Origin: a bacterium
GTDB taxonomy: Bacteria > Patescibacteriota > Patescibacteriia > JAGPKW01
Assembly (NCBI GenBank): GCA_021780535.1
Contig: JAJXYN010000009.1
Coordinates: 5,631-69,630 of the forward strand
Direction: 5' to 3'
Length of the DNA stretch: 64,000 nucleotides
A program made the position numbers and the translations under genes. How positions within the stretch are numbered: the stretch's first letter is position 1; each line of letters begins with the position of its first letter. This document shows, one piece after another, positions 9,466-62,451 of the stretch. The notes below the pieces were generated by a model. It was not told the origin of the DNA and did not search any database. It saw only the letters and a program-made list of their open reading frames with translations.

Positions 9466-10332
9466 TTAGCTAGGCTTTTGCTTTACACTAAGAACCAACA
9501 TCTCTCTTTCTTTTAAAGATAAGGCACTTTGTAACCGTAATATTTCTTCATCTTTTTTCATAATTTCCCTTCTCATGTCGCTTATCTCTTTTTCTTTTTG
9601 AGAGGAAGAAATAATTATTCTGATAAAATCTATTTTATCATTATAAAATTTCTCTTTTACTAATAAATCTTTAATTATACTATCCCCTATATCTTTTGGG
9701 AAAAGTATTAAATCCCAGAAATTTATTGATTTTTGTGTGACGGCAGACTTTAAATAGAATGTTATTTGATTAATCAGTTGATCAGCATTAATTTTATAAC
9801 TAAATATATTCCCATTATTTTTCATTTCAAATACGTCATTCTTATTTTCTCCCAAATCTCCTAAATCAACACGAATAGAGTCCAAATAAGTAAAAGCTAC
9901 TGATTTGCTCACTCTTATTTTTGATCTAAGATTTTTATTACTTACAACATCTATTAACTTTTCTTTTGACAAACTTAAAATATTAAATATTCTCGTTGCT
10001 AATTGAAATTCCGCTAATTGGTTACTCGCTATCCTATCCTTTATTATTTTAACATTAATGTCATTCAAAAAATTGATTGATTTTCCAATTATCGCCAATA
10101 GACATTTGTAGAATAAAAATGGTTCGAAAAAAACAGCCACTTTATCGTGCATAACTCTTGACGAAATATCATTAAAAAATGAATATGAATTAAATATTGA
10201 TATATTTATAAAACCGTCAGGAGTGGCTGTCACTTCTATTCTTTGGTAGTCATCGGGATCGATCTCTGCCATACTCCCTCCTTTCAAAGAGTTTTTAGGA
10301 ACAAAAATATTAGTTGCTTTATTTAACAACAA
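9466..10332 (-). CDS. Hypothetical protein with C-terminal coiled coil
   Basis: 288-aa ORF. An internal ATG (MAEIDPDDYQ, near 10272) is preceded by AGGAGGGAG and may be the true start. No recognised domain. Confidence 0.55.
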   Translation of the reverse strand: MLLNKATNIFVPKNSLKGGSMAEIDPDDYQRIEVTATPDGFINISIFNSYSFFNDISSRVMHDKVAVFFEPFLFYKCLLAIIGKSINFLNDINVKIIKDRIASNQLAEFQLATRIFNILSLSKEKLIDVVSNKNLRSKIRVSKSVAFTYLDSIRVDLGDLGENKNDVFEMKNNGNIFSYKINADQLINQITFYLKSAVTQKSINFWDLILFPKDIGDSIIKDLLVKEKFYNDKIDFIRIIISSSQKEKEISDMRREIMKKDEEILRLQSALSLKEREMLVLSVKQKPS

Positions 10333-18115: not shown

Positions 18116-18661
18116 TTAACCCTTATTTTTCGAGATTAACCCCATAATGAACCTTACCAATTTTGAAAGATCGTTATAGAATTCTTCTTCATGGATACAC
18201 CCTATAACGTTTTTGGCAGCTTCATCACTCATAAAATCAACAATTTCTCCTGTGCCATAATGATTTTCTGGCTTTCTAATTGTGATTAATATGATGTTTA
18301 GACCATTACAGTCCCTTGATAGAAAAAGATCTTTCCGGCGTGGACTATTATCAAAAGCCGAGAGATCATCTTCATGAATAACTATAATAGATCCTTTTCT
18401 GTCCCCCAATCTAATCTCATCAAAAGACAATACTTCAATGATTTTTTGGTTACCAGGAAAGATAGATGTAAGAGACTGCACAATAAGATACAACTTATCT
18501 TTCGAGCTACCTAATGCTTGTTTTCTTAACTTGGAATTCCTCGGGACCACTAGAACAATCTTGTCTACCATTGAAATATCAAGCTTCTTCATGTATTTTG
18601 CCTCCTGTAAATTCAAAATTGTATTCAGTGTATTTTTATCATATTTTTTATTTTTTTGCAA
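18116..18661 (-). CDS. Hypothetical protein (181 aa) with locally elevated GC
   Basis: ORF tightly coupled to the upstream 760-aa membrane protein gene, whose stop adjoins this start. GC about 35-45% in sampled windows against about 25% background. Confidence 0.5.
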   Translation of the reverse strand: MQKNKKYDKNTLNTILNLQEAKYMKKLDISMVDKIVLVVPRNSKLRKQALGSSKDKLYLIVQSLTSIFPGNQKIIEVLSFDEIRLGDRKGSIIVIHEDDLSAFDNSPRRKDLFLSRDCNGLNIILITIRKPENHYGTGEIVDFMSDEAAKNVIGCIHEEEFYNDLSKLVRFIMGLISKNKG

Positions 18662-27224: not shown

Positions 27225-28067
27225 TTAACTCTCAAAGTATCTATAAACTAGTGCTTTAGTTCTATGAAGCATATTACTCGCTAGCAGAATGCTTTTTCTC
27301 CTGCTTAGAAAATTGAACTTTGGGTTATATTCTATTATTATAGTTAGTTTACTTTCCCCATATATTCCTTCTTCGAAATTTATTTTCATGATCTGCAACA
27401 GGTGTCTGAATATTTGTATTTCTCTCAGACTCGCCCAATCATAATTTTCATGAACCGAATCAATATTGGTGGTTTTTCTAATAAACTCGTCAATATCAAT
27501 TACTGGCTGAAAATGAATCACTGGAGCAAAATTGCGTCTTAATTCATACACAACATCTTCTGCTTTCACTTGCTCCAACTTTTCATAATCGATCAAATGC
27601 CTTGTGTCTGCAACTAAAATTTGCCTACTTTCACAAGCATCTTTCAATACTTCTAGCGATACAACTGACAAGTTTGGAGAAATTTCGACAAGAGTATTTT
27701 CATACTCATCTTGTACTAAATCAATGAATTCGTGTGATATATGAGTTATTCTTCTTCTTGTGTGATTATCTACAACCATTTGTGCTGCTTTTTCTTTTTT
27801 GAAGAGCAAAAATAATTGCAGAATATCATCAAAAGCCCTACTTGCATCTATTTGCCAAAAATGTTGAAGTTCCGGTCTCCACACATCCTCATAACAAATT
27901 GTATCTTCCTCTAGCCCTGTTATTCCATTTTTCAATGGTAGGGCTTGGAAACCGTCGTATCCAACTCTTTTAGCGTCTTTTCTTGTATCATTAGCAGATC
28001 TCCCAATTTGCATGATGGAAATGTCACTAACGCCATATTCTATGGTTGTTTCCATGTTGCCCTCCAT
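27225..28067 (-). CDS. Hypothetical protein in a GC-elevated island; possibly a xylose-isomerase-like TIM-barrel (sugar phosphate isomerase/epimerase) family member
   Basis: 280 aa, GC about 35-43% against about 25% background. AKRVGYDGFQALPL resembles the (A)KELGFDGVEL start of AP-endonuclease-2/xylose isomerase-like TIM barrels. The second ATG (28055, METT...) has a GGAGGG SD and may be the real start. Family call is low confidence. Confidence 0.5.
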   Translation of the reverse strand: MEGNMETTIEYGVSDISIMQIGRSANDTRKDAKRVGYDGFQALPLKNGITGLEEDTICYEDVWRPELQHFWQIDASRAFDDILQLFLLFKKEKAAQMVVDNHTRRRITHISHEFIDLVQDEYENTLVEISPNLSVVSLEVLKDACESRQILVADTRHLIDYEKLEQVKAEDVVYELRRNFAPVIHFQPVIDIDEFIRKTTNIDSVHENYDWASLREIQIFRHLLQIMKINFEEGIYGESKLTIIIEYNPKFNFLSRRKSILLASNMLHRTKALVYRYFES

Positions 28068-55369: not shown

Positions 55370-55885
55370 TTGACTATGCTTTTCATTAATGTTAATATTT
55401 TCATCATCACTTATCTTAATCAGGAGGGCTACATGAAACATGGTTTTAAGTACACAAAAATTGGTGACATGGAAATTATGAATAATGTTACCATAACAGA
55501 CCCTTTTATTACTATTTCTGCATGGTATGATAAAAATGGTAATAGAATTGGTCTTGGAGAATTAAGTTTAAAAGATTTAAAATTAATTTCAGAAAATTTA
55601 AAATATGATGAATTATTTATTATTGTTAATATAGACGACTCGTTCTGGTGTTTCATATCAGGGAAAAAACCCGAGAGAAACCTCGATCTCGATGAAAATG
55701 TTTCAAAAGATTTTTTGTATAATAATTCTATAATTATAATTGCAAAAAATAAAATGTATATCGTGGATTATTTAAATAGAGAAAACGCAACCACTAATAT
55801 ATATATCAGAAAAGGCTTTGTTGTTAATAAAAATTTCTACGATTTTAAAATATTGCCCGCAAACAGCCTTCCAAACTTGTTTTAA
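55370..55885 (+). CDS. Hypothetical protein; likely true start at ATG 55433 (MKHGFKY…)
   Basis: AGGAGGG at 55422-55428 sits 5 nt before ATG 55433. No known domain. Mildly GC-elevated. Confidence 0.45.
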   Translation: MTMLFINVNIFIITYLNQEGYMKHGFKYTKIGDMEIMNNVTITDPFITISAWYDKNGNRIGLGELSLKDLKLISENLKYDELFIIVNIDDSFWCFISGKKPERNLDLDENVSKDFLYNNSIIIIAKNKMYIVDYLNRENATTNIYIRKGFVVNKNFYDFKILPANSLPNLF

Positions 55886-59454: not shown

Positions 59455-59493
59455 AAAATAGCAGATTTTAATGATCTGCTATTTTATTTTTTT
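59455..59493. terminator. Hairpin terminator between trpS (+) and the methyltransferase gene (-)
   Basis: AAAATAGCAGAT-tttaatg-ATCTGCTATTTT plus T-run. Confidence 0.5.
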
Positions 59494-60290
59494 AATATTG
59501 AAATTATATTTCTTGCTTCTAAAATATTTTTATCATCAGTAAGTTTGTTTTCTAAAATTTCAAAACTGTTTTTTACAAATAGATTTCTAAGCTCTATTTT
59601 ATTAAATGCATAATAATATCTTTTTGAAAGTAATTCCCCTTTACTATTTTTCCATGGTATAAAGGTGTCTTTTAGATTGAAACTAAAGTTATCCAACCAA
59701 TTAAATTTTTCTTTTTTTATATCGCTAATTGATCTCTGATTTATATTTTTATATTTATTAACATCAAACAAATACTTTATGTATTTTAATTGAAACAAAT
59801 TCCAACTTGTCATCATAAGTAACCCTTCTTTTTTTAATACTCTGTAAATATTTTTTAACCCTTTGTTTCTTGTTTCTTTTGATGGTAAATGATGAAATAT
59901 TGCTATACAAAAAACTATATCAAATTCTTCTTCTTTAAAATTTGATAAATTTAAAATATCACCCATTTCAAAATGAATTGAATTTTTTTTATTAACGCGA
60001 TTTGCTTCTGTATTTTTCAATGCTTCATTTATCTGGCCTTCTGAGTTGTCTATTCCTTTATACTCATAATTTATGCCTAGCAATTTTAAAAAATTTATTA
60101 ATCTACCATTACCACAACCTATATCTAAAACTTTTAATTTGTAATTTTTTGGTTTTAAAAATAAATATTCAAGAATATATTTTTTAAATAAATCAAATTC
60201 TCTCCAATCATTCTGACGAGTTACATTAAAATTTGAAGATATTATATTATAATCATTTTTTACTTTTTCGAGTATTTCTTTTTCTTTCAT
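59484..60290 (-). CDS. Class I SAM-dependent methyltransferase
   Basis: Motif I VLDIGCGNGRL. 268 aa. Substrate unknown. Confidence 0.7.
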   Translation of the reverse strand: MKEKEILEKVKNDYNIISSNFNVTRQNDWREFDLFKKYILEYLFLKPKNYKLKVLDIGCGNGRLINFLKLLGINYEYKGIDNSEGQINEALKNTEANRVNKKNSIHFEMGDILNLSNFKEEEFDIVFCIAIFHHLPSKETRNKGLKNIYRVLKKEGLLMMTSWNLFQLKYIKYLFDVNKYKNINQRSISDIKKEKFNWLDNFSFNLKDTFIPWKNSKGELLSKRYYYAFNKIELRNLFVKNSFEILENKLTDDKNILEARNIISILKK

Positions 60291-60425
60291 GTTATTTTAA
60301 TATTTCTTCTTTTATATTTTTTTATATTAATTCTATACCAGAACAATTATATACAAAAACTCAAATAAACACTACTTGATTTTTTATATTTTTTATGATA
60401 TTTATTATTATAAGGAGTTTACAGA

Positions 60426-60718
60426 TGACTAAGCATGAGCTAAGGTTTCCCAACCCCGACAACGAGAACGACGTCTATACTGTTGAATGCGACGAACAAC
60501 TGTTCGACAGAATGATGCTCGGGCTAGAGTATTCCCCACTAAATACTGGGGGATTTGGATTTTTTGCCTCATTTACTACTCACTTCTCAAAATATAACGA
60601 GAATGAGGATCTCTATTGGATGGAAGTATCCCTAAAACGAGAAGTGGATTTCCAACCCGGAGAGCTGGAAGTATTTCTCCAAATGCTTCTCCATACTGGA
60701 TGGAGAATCGTAAACTAA
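60426..60718 (+). CDS. Orphan 97-aa acidic protein encoded by a strongly GC-elevated cassette (likely true start ATG 60426; the ORF track gives 60395)
   Basis: TAAGGAG about 9 nt upstream of ATG 60426 (MTKHELRFPNPDNENDVYTVECDEQLFDRMM…). GC about 45-48% in sampled 60-nt windows against about 25% for neighbours. Own terminator. Confidence 0.5.
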
Positions 60719-60733
60719 GTCATTGTCATATAT

Positions 60734-60760
60734 GACCGCGAAACAAAGCGGTCTTTTTTA
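60734..60760 (+). terminator. Rho-independent terminator of the GC-rich cassette
   Basis: GACCGC-gaaacaaa-GCGGTC plus TTTTTTA. Confidence 0.65.
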
Positions 60761-60801
60761 TTCTCTTTCATTTTTGATTTTATTTTGTTATTATTTACTC
60801 T

Positions 60802-62451
60802 ATGAGCTTAACAAGAAACCAACAACTTACATTAGAATTATATAATAATCTAAACAACATAAGTACTGTTGAGGATTTTGTATTAGCAAAAAAAAAGATT
60901 TTTGGCCAAGACAAAATAGACCCCCCATCTAATTCTGACACACTAAAAATATATAATGAATTATTGGATTTAAAAATTATTAGCTCTAATGATAAATTTG
61001 AAAAATTTTGTAAAAAACATAAAGTTAGAACTCTTTCTGGTGTTTCTGTTATTGCTATTTTAACAGAAGAAAGACCTTGTCCTGGAAATTGTGCGTTTTG
61101 CCCGACCGAACCAGATATGCCGAAAAGCTATCTTTCTAATGAGCCAGCCGTAATGAGAGCTATAAAATGTAATTTTGATGCTTATGCCCAAATTAGAGCA
61201 AGATTGCATGCTCTTAAAATTAATGGCCATGATACTTCCAAAAATGAAATTATTATAATGGGCGGAACGTGGTCATATCTTGAACATGAATATCAAGAAA
61301 GATTTATTTTAGGAATGTTCCAAGGGTTAAATGAAGGAATAAGAATGGATGATAACAACCTTCTGCCAATAAGAATGGATGAGAAATTAATTAAAAAAAT
61401 AAAACTAGAACAGCAAAAAAATGAAATTAGTGATAATAGATGTGTTGGGCTAACTCTTGAAACTAGACCTGATTATATAGATGAAAGAGAATTAATAAGA
61501 ATGAGAGAATTTGGATGCACAAGAATTGAAATAGGTGTCCAGACAATATTTGATGATATTGCTATATTAAATAAAAGAGGTCATTTGGTTGATAAAACAA
61601 TAAAAGCAACAAAATTAATGAAAGATGCTGGGTTTAAAATCTGTTATCACATGATGCCAAATTTGCCAGGTTCAACAATAGAAAAAGATATAAAAATGTT
61701 TGATGAATTATATAATAATTCTGATTTTAAACCTGATATGGTAAAAATCTATCCTTGTGTTGTTGTAAAAAATGCTGAGATATATAAATGGATGCTTGAT
61801 GGCACTTATACACCATATACAGATCAGGAATTGTCTGACTTATTAATTGAAGTAAAAAAAATAACACCTTATTGGGTTAGAATTAATAGACTAATAAGAG
61901 ATATACCGTCAACTTCAATAGAGGGTGGAAACAAAATACCAAATCTTAGAGAAGTTGTTCTTAGAAAAATGCAAAAATCTGGATTAAAATGTAACTGCAT
62001 AAGATGTAGAGAAATTAGAGATAAGGACTTTGATATTGATGATGTAGATTTATTTATAGAAGAATATAAAGCAAGTGATGGAATAGAATACTTTTTAAGC
62101 TTTGAAGATAAATCTAGAAATAATATATTTTCATTTTTAAGATTAAGGATTCCCTCTCAATACTTTTCCCACGAAAAACACTTTATAAAAGAATTAGAAA
62201 ATGCAGCGATTATAAGAGAAATTCATACATATGGAGAAGTCGTTTCTATAAATGATAAAAATAAAAAAGAAGATACTCAACATATTGGTTTTGGAAGAAA
62301 ATTAATTTCTGCAGCTTTTGAAATAATTAAAGAAAAATATCCTTCAATAAAAAATATTGCTGTTATTTCTGGTGTTGGTGTTCGTAGCTATTATAAAAAG
62401 AATGGATTTGAACTTGTTGGAACTTATATGATAAAAAAAATAGAAAATTAA
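60802..62451 (+). CDS. elp3: Elp3-family radical SAM plus GNAT acetyltransferase (tRNA U34 modification enzyme homologue)
   Basis: Radical-SAM Cys cluster (RPCPGNCAFCP), central TIM-like region, C-terminal GNAT with HIGFGRKLISAAFEI. 549 aa. Confidence 0.8.
   Translation: MSLTRNQQLTLELYNNLNNISTVEDFVLAKKKIFGQDKIDPPSNSDTLKIYNELLDLKIISSNDKFEKFCKKHKVRTLSGVSVIAILTEERPCPGNCAFCPTEPDMPKSYLSNEPAVMRAIKCNFDAYAQIRARLHALKINGHDTSKNEIIIMGGTWSYLEHEYQERFILGMFQGLNEGIRMDDNNLLPIRMDEKLIKKIKLEQQKNEISDNRCVGLTLETRPDYIDERELIRMREFGCTRIEIGVQTIFDDIAILNKRGHLVDKTIKATKLMKDAGFKICYHMMPNLPGSTIEKDIKMFDELYNNSDFKPDMVKIYPCVVVKNAEIYKWMLDGTYTPYTDQELSDLLIEVKKITPYWVRINRLIRDIPSTSIEGGNKIPNLREVVLRKMQKSGLKCNCIRCREIRDKDFDIDDVDLFIEEYKASDGIEYFLSFEDKSRNNIFSFLRLRIPSQYFSHEKHFIKELENAAIIREIHTYGEVVSINDKNKKEDTQHIGFGRKLISAAFEIIKEKYPSIKNIAVISGVGVRSYYKKNGFELVGTYMIKKIEN

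Follow-up and report, generated by a model that had tools for sequence, protein, structure and literature searches.

The GC-rich spike that lies between a gene for a class I S-adenosylmethionine (SAM)-dependent methyltransferase (MT) and elp3 in a 64-kb stretch of an AT-rich Patescibacteria genome (contig JAJXYN010000009.1; hereafter the window) is a real protein gene of 97 codons, and its anomaly in composition is significant. We favor, with moderate confidence, the view that this is a monocistronic gene with a predicted sigma-70-type extended -10 promoter, a Shine-Dalgarno (SD) sequence and a terminator of its own, encoding a probably soluble α/β protein of about 90-100 amino acids (AA) from an undescribed, clade-restricted family, and that it is old and vertically inherited, a long-standing resident of the MT/elp3 slot in a small clade of Patescibacteria of 25% GC. 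As part of the same reading, its raised GC content would be a standing trait of the family and not the mark of a recent transfer, as had been proposed when the spike was first noticed.

The open reading frame (ORF) at 60425-60718 is the top GC peak of the window, with 42.9% GC against a mean of 25.3% (standard deviation 4.2%, z = +4.2), a value reached by 0.06% of the windows in a scan of the 64 kb. The first-pass annotation, made from the letters of the window, had rightly singled out this peak but put it at 45-48% GC, which is too high, with 41.9% measured for 60410-60760 and 43.5% for the best 294-nt window. By codon position the GC content of the ORF was 0.53, 0.29, and 0.47, and its third-position value (GC3, 0.469) compares with 0.156 +/- 0.045 in 60 other ORFs of the window, the highest of which reached 0.32. 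The deviation is thus plain in a composition scan, the check that had been proposed for it. Given its amino acids, the synonymous codon choice of the gene lay 12.6 standard deviations from window usage (z = -12.6): all 11 leucine codons were CTN, where the window background is 75% TTA or TTG, and three of the four proline codons were CCC, against 2% in the background, in agreement with the earlier remark that such codons are rare elsewhere in the window. The annotated length of 97 AA was also correct, but the start codon is the ATG at 60425, not 60426.

The gene reads as a self-contained unit of putative promoter, SD, ORF, and terminator (Table 1). In an alignment read by eye, the promoter register TTGAnn-17 nt-TG-n-TAAATa was common to the window and to L004, L064, and L007 (L-numbers denote loci fetched from other genomes, L008-L061 being 54 Elp3 loci from a genome scan), and the position of the extended -10 element was kept in the orthologues, as TGATAAATA in L004 and L064 and as TGTTAAATT in L007. 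A simple consensus promoter scan did not list the exact TTGATT/-10 pair of 60376-60404. The SD is kept in the relatives, as AAGGAG in L004, L064, and L067 and as GGAGGAAG in L007, and its conservation over saturated distances argues that it is used. At the 3' end, the terminator stem paired in 30 of 30 cells across five lineages, versus 23-60% of cells in slid controls, with compensatory changes in two of its six pairs (GACCGC/GCGGTC, GGTCGC/GCGACC, and GGCCGC/GCGGCC). The annotation of an SD and a GC-stem terminator with a T-run belonging to this gene is therefore upheld, and for the terminator strengthened by this covariation. A second, terminator-like hairpin, ATTCCCCA...TGGGGGAT followed by a T-rich run, was found inside the ORF at codons 36-44, which form the least conserved and lowest-pLDDT loop of the protein; it may be due to chance.

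Sequence comparison indicates that 60425-60718 is protein-coding. Five distinct protein versions are available (the window; L004/L005/L006/L063; L064; L067; and L007/L062), which aligned with 17 invariant residues and with indels in frame, and the ORF, its SD, and its reading frame were retained across all five. The gene-wide ratio of non-synonymous to synonymous substitution rates (dN/dS) was 0.17 between the window and L004 and 0.083 between L004 and L067, and between the window gene and a 98% identical copy there were three synonymous and two non-synonymous changes. Third codon positions were essentially free between orthologues while the protein was conserved.

All homologues were found on Patescibacteria contigs of about 25% GC, directly upstream of elp3 and on the same strand, in the order MT (-), Zn-ribbon gene (-) where present, promoter-SD-ORF-terminator unit, and elp3. 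The slot is occupied in four lineages besides that of the window, by homologues of 37-44% identity in at least three of them, including the outgroup L062, which is defined as such by its MT identity (67-70% vs 77-83% within the group) and carries the small gene. The order of divergence of the small protein was congruent with that of the flanking genes, at a much higher rate: amino acid identity between L004 and L067 was about 85% for the small protein and 99% for Elp3; between L004 and L064, 63%, 94% for Elp3, and 99% for the Zn-ribbon protein; and between the window and L004, 41%, 81% for Elp3, and 83% for the MT, with about 35-44% in deeper comparisons of the small protein. Four of the five lineages have the Zn-ribbon gene (Zn_ribbon_13, DUF2082) between the MT and the small gene; it was very conserved (77-99% identity), is present in L067, and is missing from the window and from L008.

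The flanks named in the first-pass annotation were verified as a class I MT on the minus strand and a genuine Elp3 on the plus strand, whose relatives place the window in the Patescibacteria, and its picture of a gene wedged between the two is apt, the pair being back-to-back in most other Patescibacteria. A divergent MT(-)/Elp3(+) pair was found in 33 of the 54 fetched Elp3 loci, with most spacers estimated at less than 50 nt, and was undetected in the loci labelled archaeal. No credible member of the family was found in these 54 loci, the two closest included. In L008, the closest species representative in GTDB (Elp3 79.5% identical), the MT-elp3 spacer measured 169 nt, contained no promoter, ORF, terminator, or Zn-ribbon gene, and aligned at both ends with the flanks of the unit in L004; the slot was also empty in L041 (Elp3 64%). 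Elsewhere the spacer held unrelated inserts, a gene for a 204-AA membrane protein in L009 and one for a 107-AA membrane protein in L021. The empty site anticipated by the first-pass annotation therefore exists, but as an ancestral state it is less parsimonious than a deletion in L008, and it is best read as a loss because L062, the outgroup, carries the gene. These comparisons indicate that the insertion is old and preceded the split of at least four lineages. We propose that the unit entered the spacer of an otherwise back-to-back MT/elp3 pair in an ancestor of the small 25%-GC clade, and that it would then have been inherited vertically and deleted in at least one lineage (L008).

The product is a member of an undescribed, narrowly distributed orphan family. 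The 97-AA protein had no match in Pfam, PHROG, PADLOC, or NCBIfam, with noise only (E = 0.03-0.13) in the PADLOC and PHROG searches; its family profile had no match among PDB sequences; a Foldseek search with a model of the protein gave nothing below E = 0.1; there was no match to 60425-60718 in phage and plasmid records at the DNA or protein level; and no relative was found on IMG/VR viral contigs. The structure and profile checks that had been recommended thus assigned no family, and the orphan status first given to the protein stands. An exhaustive phmmer search of 1.84 billion representative proteins recovered two further real clusters only, at 39% identity, and a profile search added one more version, giving the five known among about 1.8 billion representative proteins. 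A weak phmmer match, P0004, is a protein of 321 AA made of four identical 80-AA tandem units; it was taken as a translated DNA tandem repeat, probably, and set aside as a relative. The AF2 model of the 97-AA protein (pLDDT 72) has the order β-β-α-β-β-β-α, and the sequence has no signal peptide and no membrane segment. The family has one conserved cysteine and no metal-binding cysteine motif. Although the window copy is small and acidic (pI 4.47), as had been noted, acidity is not a family trait, pI ranging from 4.4 to 7.8. NEN-D-x-Y motifs in both halves of the protein, together with the DNA repeats D1 and D5, had hinted at an internal duplication of a β-β-α-β unit, but this was not significant (BLASTP E = 1.3, hhalign E = 0.58, Smith-Waterman z <= 1.7).

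The excess in GC3 was not confined to the window. The five versions had values of 0.47 (window), 0.40 (L067), 0.38 (L007), 0.36 (L004), and 0.32 (L064), and the genes beside them had 0.10-0.16. Synonymous sites were saturated between lineages (proportion of synonymous differences, pS, 0.73-0.95) and the G/C state of aligned third positions was barely shared between orthologues (permutation p 0.03-0.74), so the excess is not simply the remnant of one ancient import. Raised GC3 is a standing property of the family. A relic of one old, still ameliorating transfer is unlikely, a rough decay estimate requiring an ancestral GC3 above 1 for the window copy. In the comparison of L004 and L067, an unsaturated distance, the synonymous rate dS was 0.96 for the small gene, 0.31 for the first 160 codons of elp3, and 0.08 for the Zn-ribbon gene, and the local nucleotide substitution rate was raised 3- to 12-fold relative to the neighboring genes. 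Some of this increase is to be expected, since AT-biased mutation makes G/C sites the more mutable ones.

As to what maintains the excess, we rejected translational selection of the kind seen in highly expressed genes as a general explanation, because the genes for ribosomal proteins uL1 and uL11, NusG, and pilin have ordinary GC3 (0.13-0.20) and no SD. A target of a diversity-generating retroelement was also set aside, a sensitive blastn search having found no stretch of the gene duplicated in the 64-kb window that could be a template. When the L004/L067 changes were polarized with L064, 27 were AT-to-GC and 7 GC-to-AT; we did not use this result because L064 is a saturated and AT-rich outgroup, which biases towards it. 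The causes that remain would be selection on the mRNA or its codons, biased gene conversion at a recombination-prone locus, or repeated replacement of alleles, by way of the conserved flanks, from an unsampled GC-richer pool, and one of these gene-specific forces presumably holds the GC content up. The anomaly has outlasted the saturation of synonymous sites between orthologues, so something other than history must hold it up, and the gene cleanly contradicts the rule by which a GC spike with odd codons is taken for a recent transfer.

For the function of the protein, we consider it most likely that it is a dispensable, SD-translated accessory protein. It would be cytoplasmic and act by binding and not by catalysis, and its translation would start in an SD-dependent manner, in contrast to that of nearly all the cell's other proteins. 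Several observations weigh against the account given so far. With only five versions, the agreement between the trees is based on few taxa, and the deeper comparisons, at 35-44% identity, sit at a plateau. A rough amelioration calculation is compatible with a more recent replacement of the window allele by a GC-richer one, and the window copy is richer in GC at all codon positions (first position 0.53) and poorer in lysine and isoleucine than its orthologues. Finally, association with elp3 is a weak guide to function, given that this spacer is filled by unrelated inserts in other lineages.

That association nevertheless raises the possibility that the small protein assists or regulates the tRNA wobble-uridine module and would work with Elp3, the MT, or both, by analogy to Kti11/Dph3, Kti12, and Trm112, which assist Elp3 and Trm9 in eukaryotes and archaea. 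In all five versions the gene stands immediately 5' of elp3 in the same orientation, the MT and Elp3 genes are themselves a strongly conserved pair in Patescibacteria, and a small Zn-ribbon gene shares the spacer in most of the lineages. The pairing of the MT with Elp3 in 33 of 54 loci suggests that the MT might belong to the same tRNA U34 pathway, perhaps at a Trm9-like step; this is a conjecture, the MT giving generic class I methyltransferase matches only. Like Kti11/Dph3 and Trm112, the 97-AA protein is small and encoded beside wobble-uridine enzymes. Unlike them, it has no Zn-binding cysteine motif, its gene is predicted to be transcribed separately, with its own promoter and a conserved terminator parting it from elp3, and most organisms with Elp3 do not have the family. 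No similarity to Kti11/Dph3 or Trm112 was found in Pfam, NCBIfam, PDB sequences, or Foldseek (E <0.1), no family member co-occurred with Elp3 in the 54 fetched loci, and L008, L041, and about 50 other Elp3 loci do without the gene, all with intact Elp3. The small protein also evolves far faster than Elp3, and unrelated genes fill the same spacer elsewhere. We therefore regard a role in the Elp3 module, for which the argument is one of position, as unlikely.

A recent horizontal acquisition of a GC-richer foreign cassette, perhaps from the same donor as the island at 27.2-28.8 kb, would account for the strongly atypical composition and codon use and for an SD that looks foreign in a genome largely without them. 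It would also suit the empty site in a close relative and the window allele being the most GC-rich and least lysine- and isoleucine-rich of the family; moreover, a relative of the island gene 27225-28055 occupies a different genomic position in L065, which indicates that such genes move. The orthologues in the identical slot in four other lineages, outgroup included, and a divergence that scales with that of the flanking genes do not agree with a recent arrival, and on these grounds the idea of a donor cassette put forward in the first-pass annotation is not supported. The donor search it had recommended yielded no candidate, either among 1.84 billion representative proteins or in collections of viral, phage, and plasmid sequences, whether DNA or protein records. 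There is no integrase or transposase adjoining 60425-60718, no tRNA nearby, and no convincing flanking repeat, the single direct repeat being 31 nt long, AT-rich, and 71% identical. Nor is the distribution patchy and non-vertical, the gene being missing from just L008 and L041, the latter more distant. The unit does resemble phage 'morons' and small genomic islets in being autonomous, deviating in GC, and present or absent between close relatives, but unlike them it lies outside any prophage or mobile element, has no viral, phage, or plasmid relative that we could find, and has held one chromosomal slot through several speciations. Taken together, a recent transfer is quite unlikely, and vertical residence in the slot remains the reading that we prefer.

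The protein had also been placed, by its size, with immunity, antitoxin, or anti-defense proteins, and one could extend this to an effector of interaction between an episymbiont and its host, evolving fast in an arms race. It is small, orphan, and variably present between close relatives, its amino acid divergence is about 3-25 times that of its neighbors, and the window copy is acidic. In size, orphan status, fast change, and the acidity of this copy it is like barstar, the Ocr/ArdA-type DNA mimics, and the anti-CRISPRs. In contrast to these, it has no adjoining toxin or other partner gene, lies in no mobile, phage, or defense context, matched neither Pfam Barstar nor anything in PADLOC, with PHROG likewise at the level of noise, and belongs to a family in which acidity is not conserved and which is under purifying selection; the lack of a signal peptide or membrane segment also counts against a role in conflict. 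With dN/dS at 0.08-0.17 and dS equally raised, the speed of change comes from the substitution rate and not from positive selection. For these reasons we consider a part in conflict very unlikely.

Least probable by far is an element acting at the RNA level (a structured RNA, a dual-function RNA, or a translated leader controlling terminator read-through into elp3): a GC island in an AT-rich genome often proves to be an RNA gene, the fold z-score of the whole unit is -3.05, and an ORF packed with genome-rare codons lies directly 5' of a terminator and elp3, but there was no Rfam match at the gathering cutoff or even at E = 10, the fold z-scores of the coding regions of four orthologues (-2.1, -1.2, 0.0, and -3.2) were inconsistent and overlapped controls from neighboring genes (+0.25 to -1.95), conserved structure with covariation was found in the terminator stem only, third-position states differ between orthologues while the protein is conserved, and different codon classes are enriched in different orthologues. 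A structured RNA was rejected on the Rfam and fold results. For a leader, the distance of 15-21 nt from stop codon to terminator stem means that a terminating ribosome would not cover the stem, and no alternative pairing was seen.

Table 1. Features of the small-gene unit, its neighbors, and the SD-led genes (positions are those of the window unless a locus is named)
Feature	Position	Strand	Details
Coding sequence of the 97-AA protein	60425-60718	+	ORF with SD; GC 42.9%, GC3 0.47; undescribed family
-35 box TTGATT, candidate own promoter	60376-60381	+	read from sequence; 17 nt upstream of the TG-extended -10
Extended -10 element TGATATTTA, putative	60396-60404	+	TG 60396-60397, hexamer TATTTA 60399-60404
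SD AAGGAG	60412-60417	+	7 nt before ATG 60425
Intrinsic terminator GACCGC-GAAACAAA-GCGGTC + T6	60734-60759	+	stem 60734-60753, N8 loop; consensus scan
Terminator-like hairpin inside the ORF	60531-60554	+	8-pair stem; consensus scan
Class I SAM-dependent MT, divergent partner of elp3	59484-60290	-	Pfam Methyltransf_11/25/31
Elp3, radical SAM/GNAT tRNA U34 modification enzyme	60802-62451	+	TIGR01211 559 bits (cutoff 350); Pfam Radical_SAM, Radical_SAM_C
Zn_ribbon_13 gene	L004 9656-9877; L064 118-339; L007 548-769; L062 1069-1290	-	73 AA
Empty MT-elp3 spacer	L008 2548-2716		both ends align with flanks of the unit in L004
SD gene	18116-18592	-	GC3 0.33
SD gene	27225-28055	-	GC3 0.28
SD gene	55433-55885	+	GC3 0.25
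SD gene	9466-10272	-	GC3 0.24
Relative of 27225-28055	L065 4217-5020		52% identity; different genomic position, between PAP2/LssY_C gene and GTPase
Relative of 27225-28055	L066 1167-2033		47% identity; adjoins flavodoxin gene, as in the window

The small gene is not alone in its signals. When all start codons were scanned, a canonical SD was found in five of 59 window genes (Table 1), which rank 1, 2, 4, 5, and 6 in GC3, with values of 0.24-0.47 against a mean of 0.149 in the genes with no SD (Mann-Whitney p = 1.7e-4). None of the five had a Pfam match above cutoff or a PHROG match, and each had a promoter-like site of the form TTGAnn-17-TGnTAnnnT and its own GC-stem terminator. The genes for uL1, uL11, NusG, pilin, LysRS, TrpRS, and Elp3 had no SD, and the regions upstream of the core genes consisted of A/T only. 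The same split was seen in L004, where six SD genes had GC3 of 0.18-0.36 and fourteen SD-less genes 0.09-0.19. In the family of 27225-28055, the SD was kept in all three known members, with GC3 of 0.28 in the window, 0.13 in L065, and 0.38 in L066. The likeness to the 27.2-28.8 kb island that had been noted earlier is thus borne out for this gene in its signature of SD, raised GC3, want of a family, and own terminator, but the shared signature points to a shared class and not to a shared donor.

A precedent for such an exception is rpsU (bS21) in Bacteroidia, one of the rare genes led by an SD where such sites are otherwise hardly used, and for which selective reading by ribosomes with an accessible anti-SD has been proposed. 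As with rpsU, a small gene here is a strong, conserved-SD exception among SD-less core genes; unlike bS21, the 97-AA protein is not basic, has no bS21 similarity, and is one of several unrelated SD-led products. By analogy, the SD-led orphan genes might be translated as a set apart, solely by ribosomes whose anti-SD is accessible; selection or biased conversion, and not a past transfer, would then account for their GC-rich codons and fast synonymous turnover. We hold this conjecture to be unlikely as it stands. Within the Parcubacteria, the anti-SD motif was detected less often in a subgroup (48% of Parcubacteria overall) (PMC9297842). Taken alone, 60425-60718 is one more lineage-specific orphan, and its wider value lies in the persistent GC3/dS anomaly and in the split of an AT-rich Patescibacteria genome between core genes without SD and a few family-less genes with SD, raised GC3, and their own terminators. 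If this split marks a distinct mode of expression or a circulating pool of accessory genes, it would bear on translation initiation and gene acquisition in reduced symbionts.

Two minor observations concern the spacer. Compared with L004, L064, and L008, the window sequence at 60760-60804 is missing about 20 nt just 5' of the elp3 ATG; a TATTAT/TATTTA box lies a few bases from the elp3 start codon, and elp3 has no SD, suggesting that its mRNA in the window may be leaderless or nearly so. In a more distant Patescibacterium (L046 2760-2950) the MT-elp3 spacer is about 200 nt long with no convincing ORF and is apparently GC-rich, a judgment based solely on its short ORFs, whose translations abound in Arg, Gly, Ala, and Pro; the spacer may hold a small RNA or a repeat.

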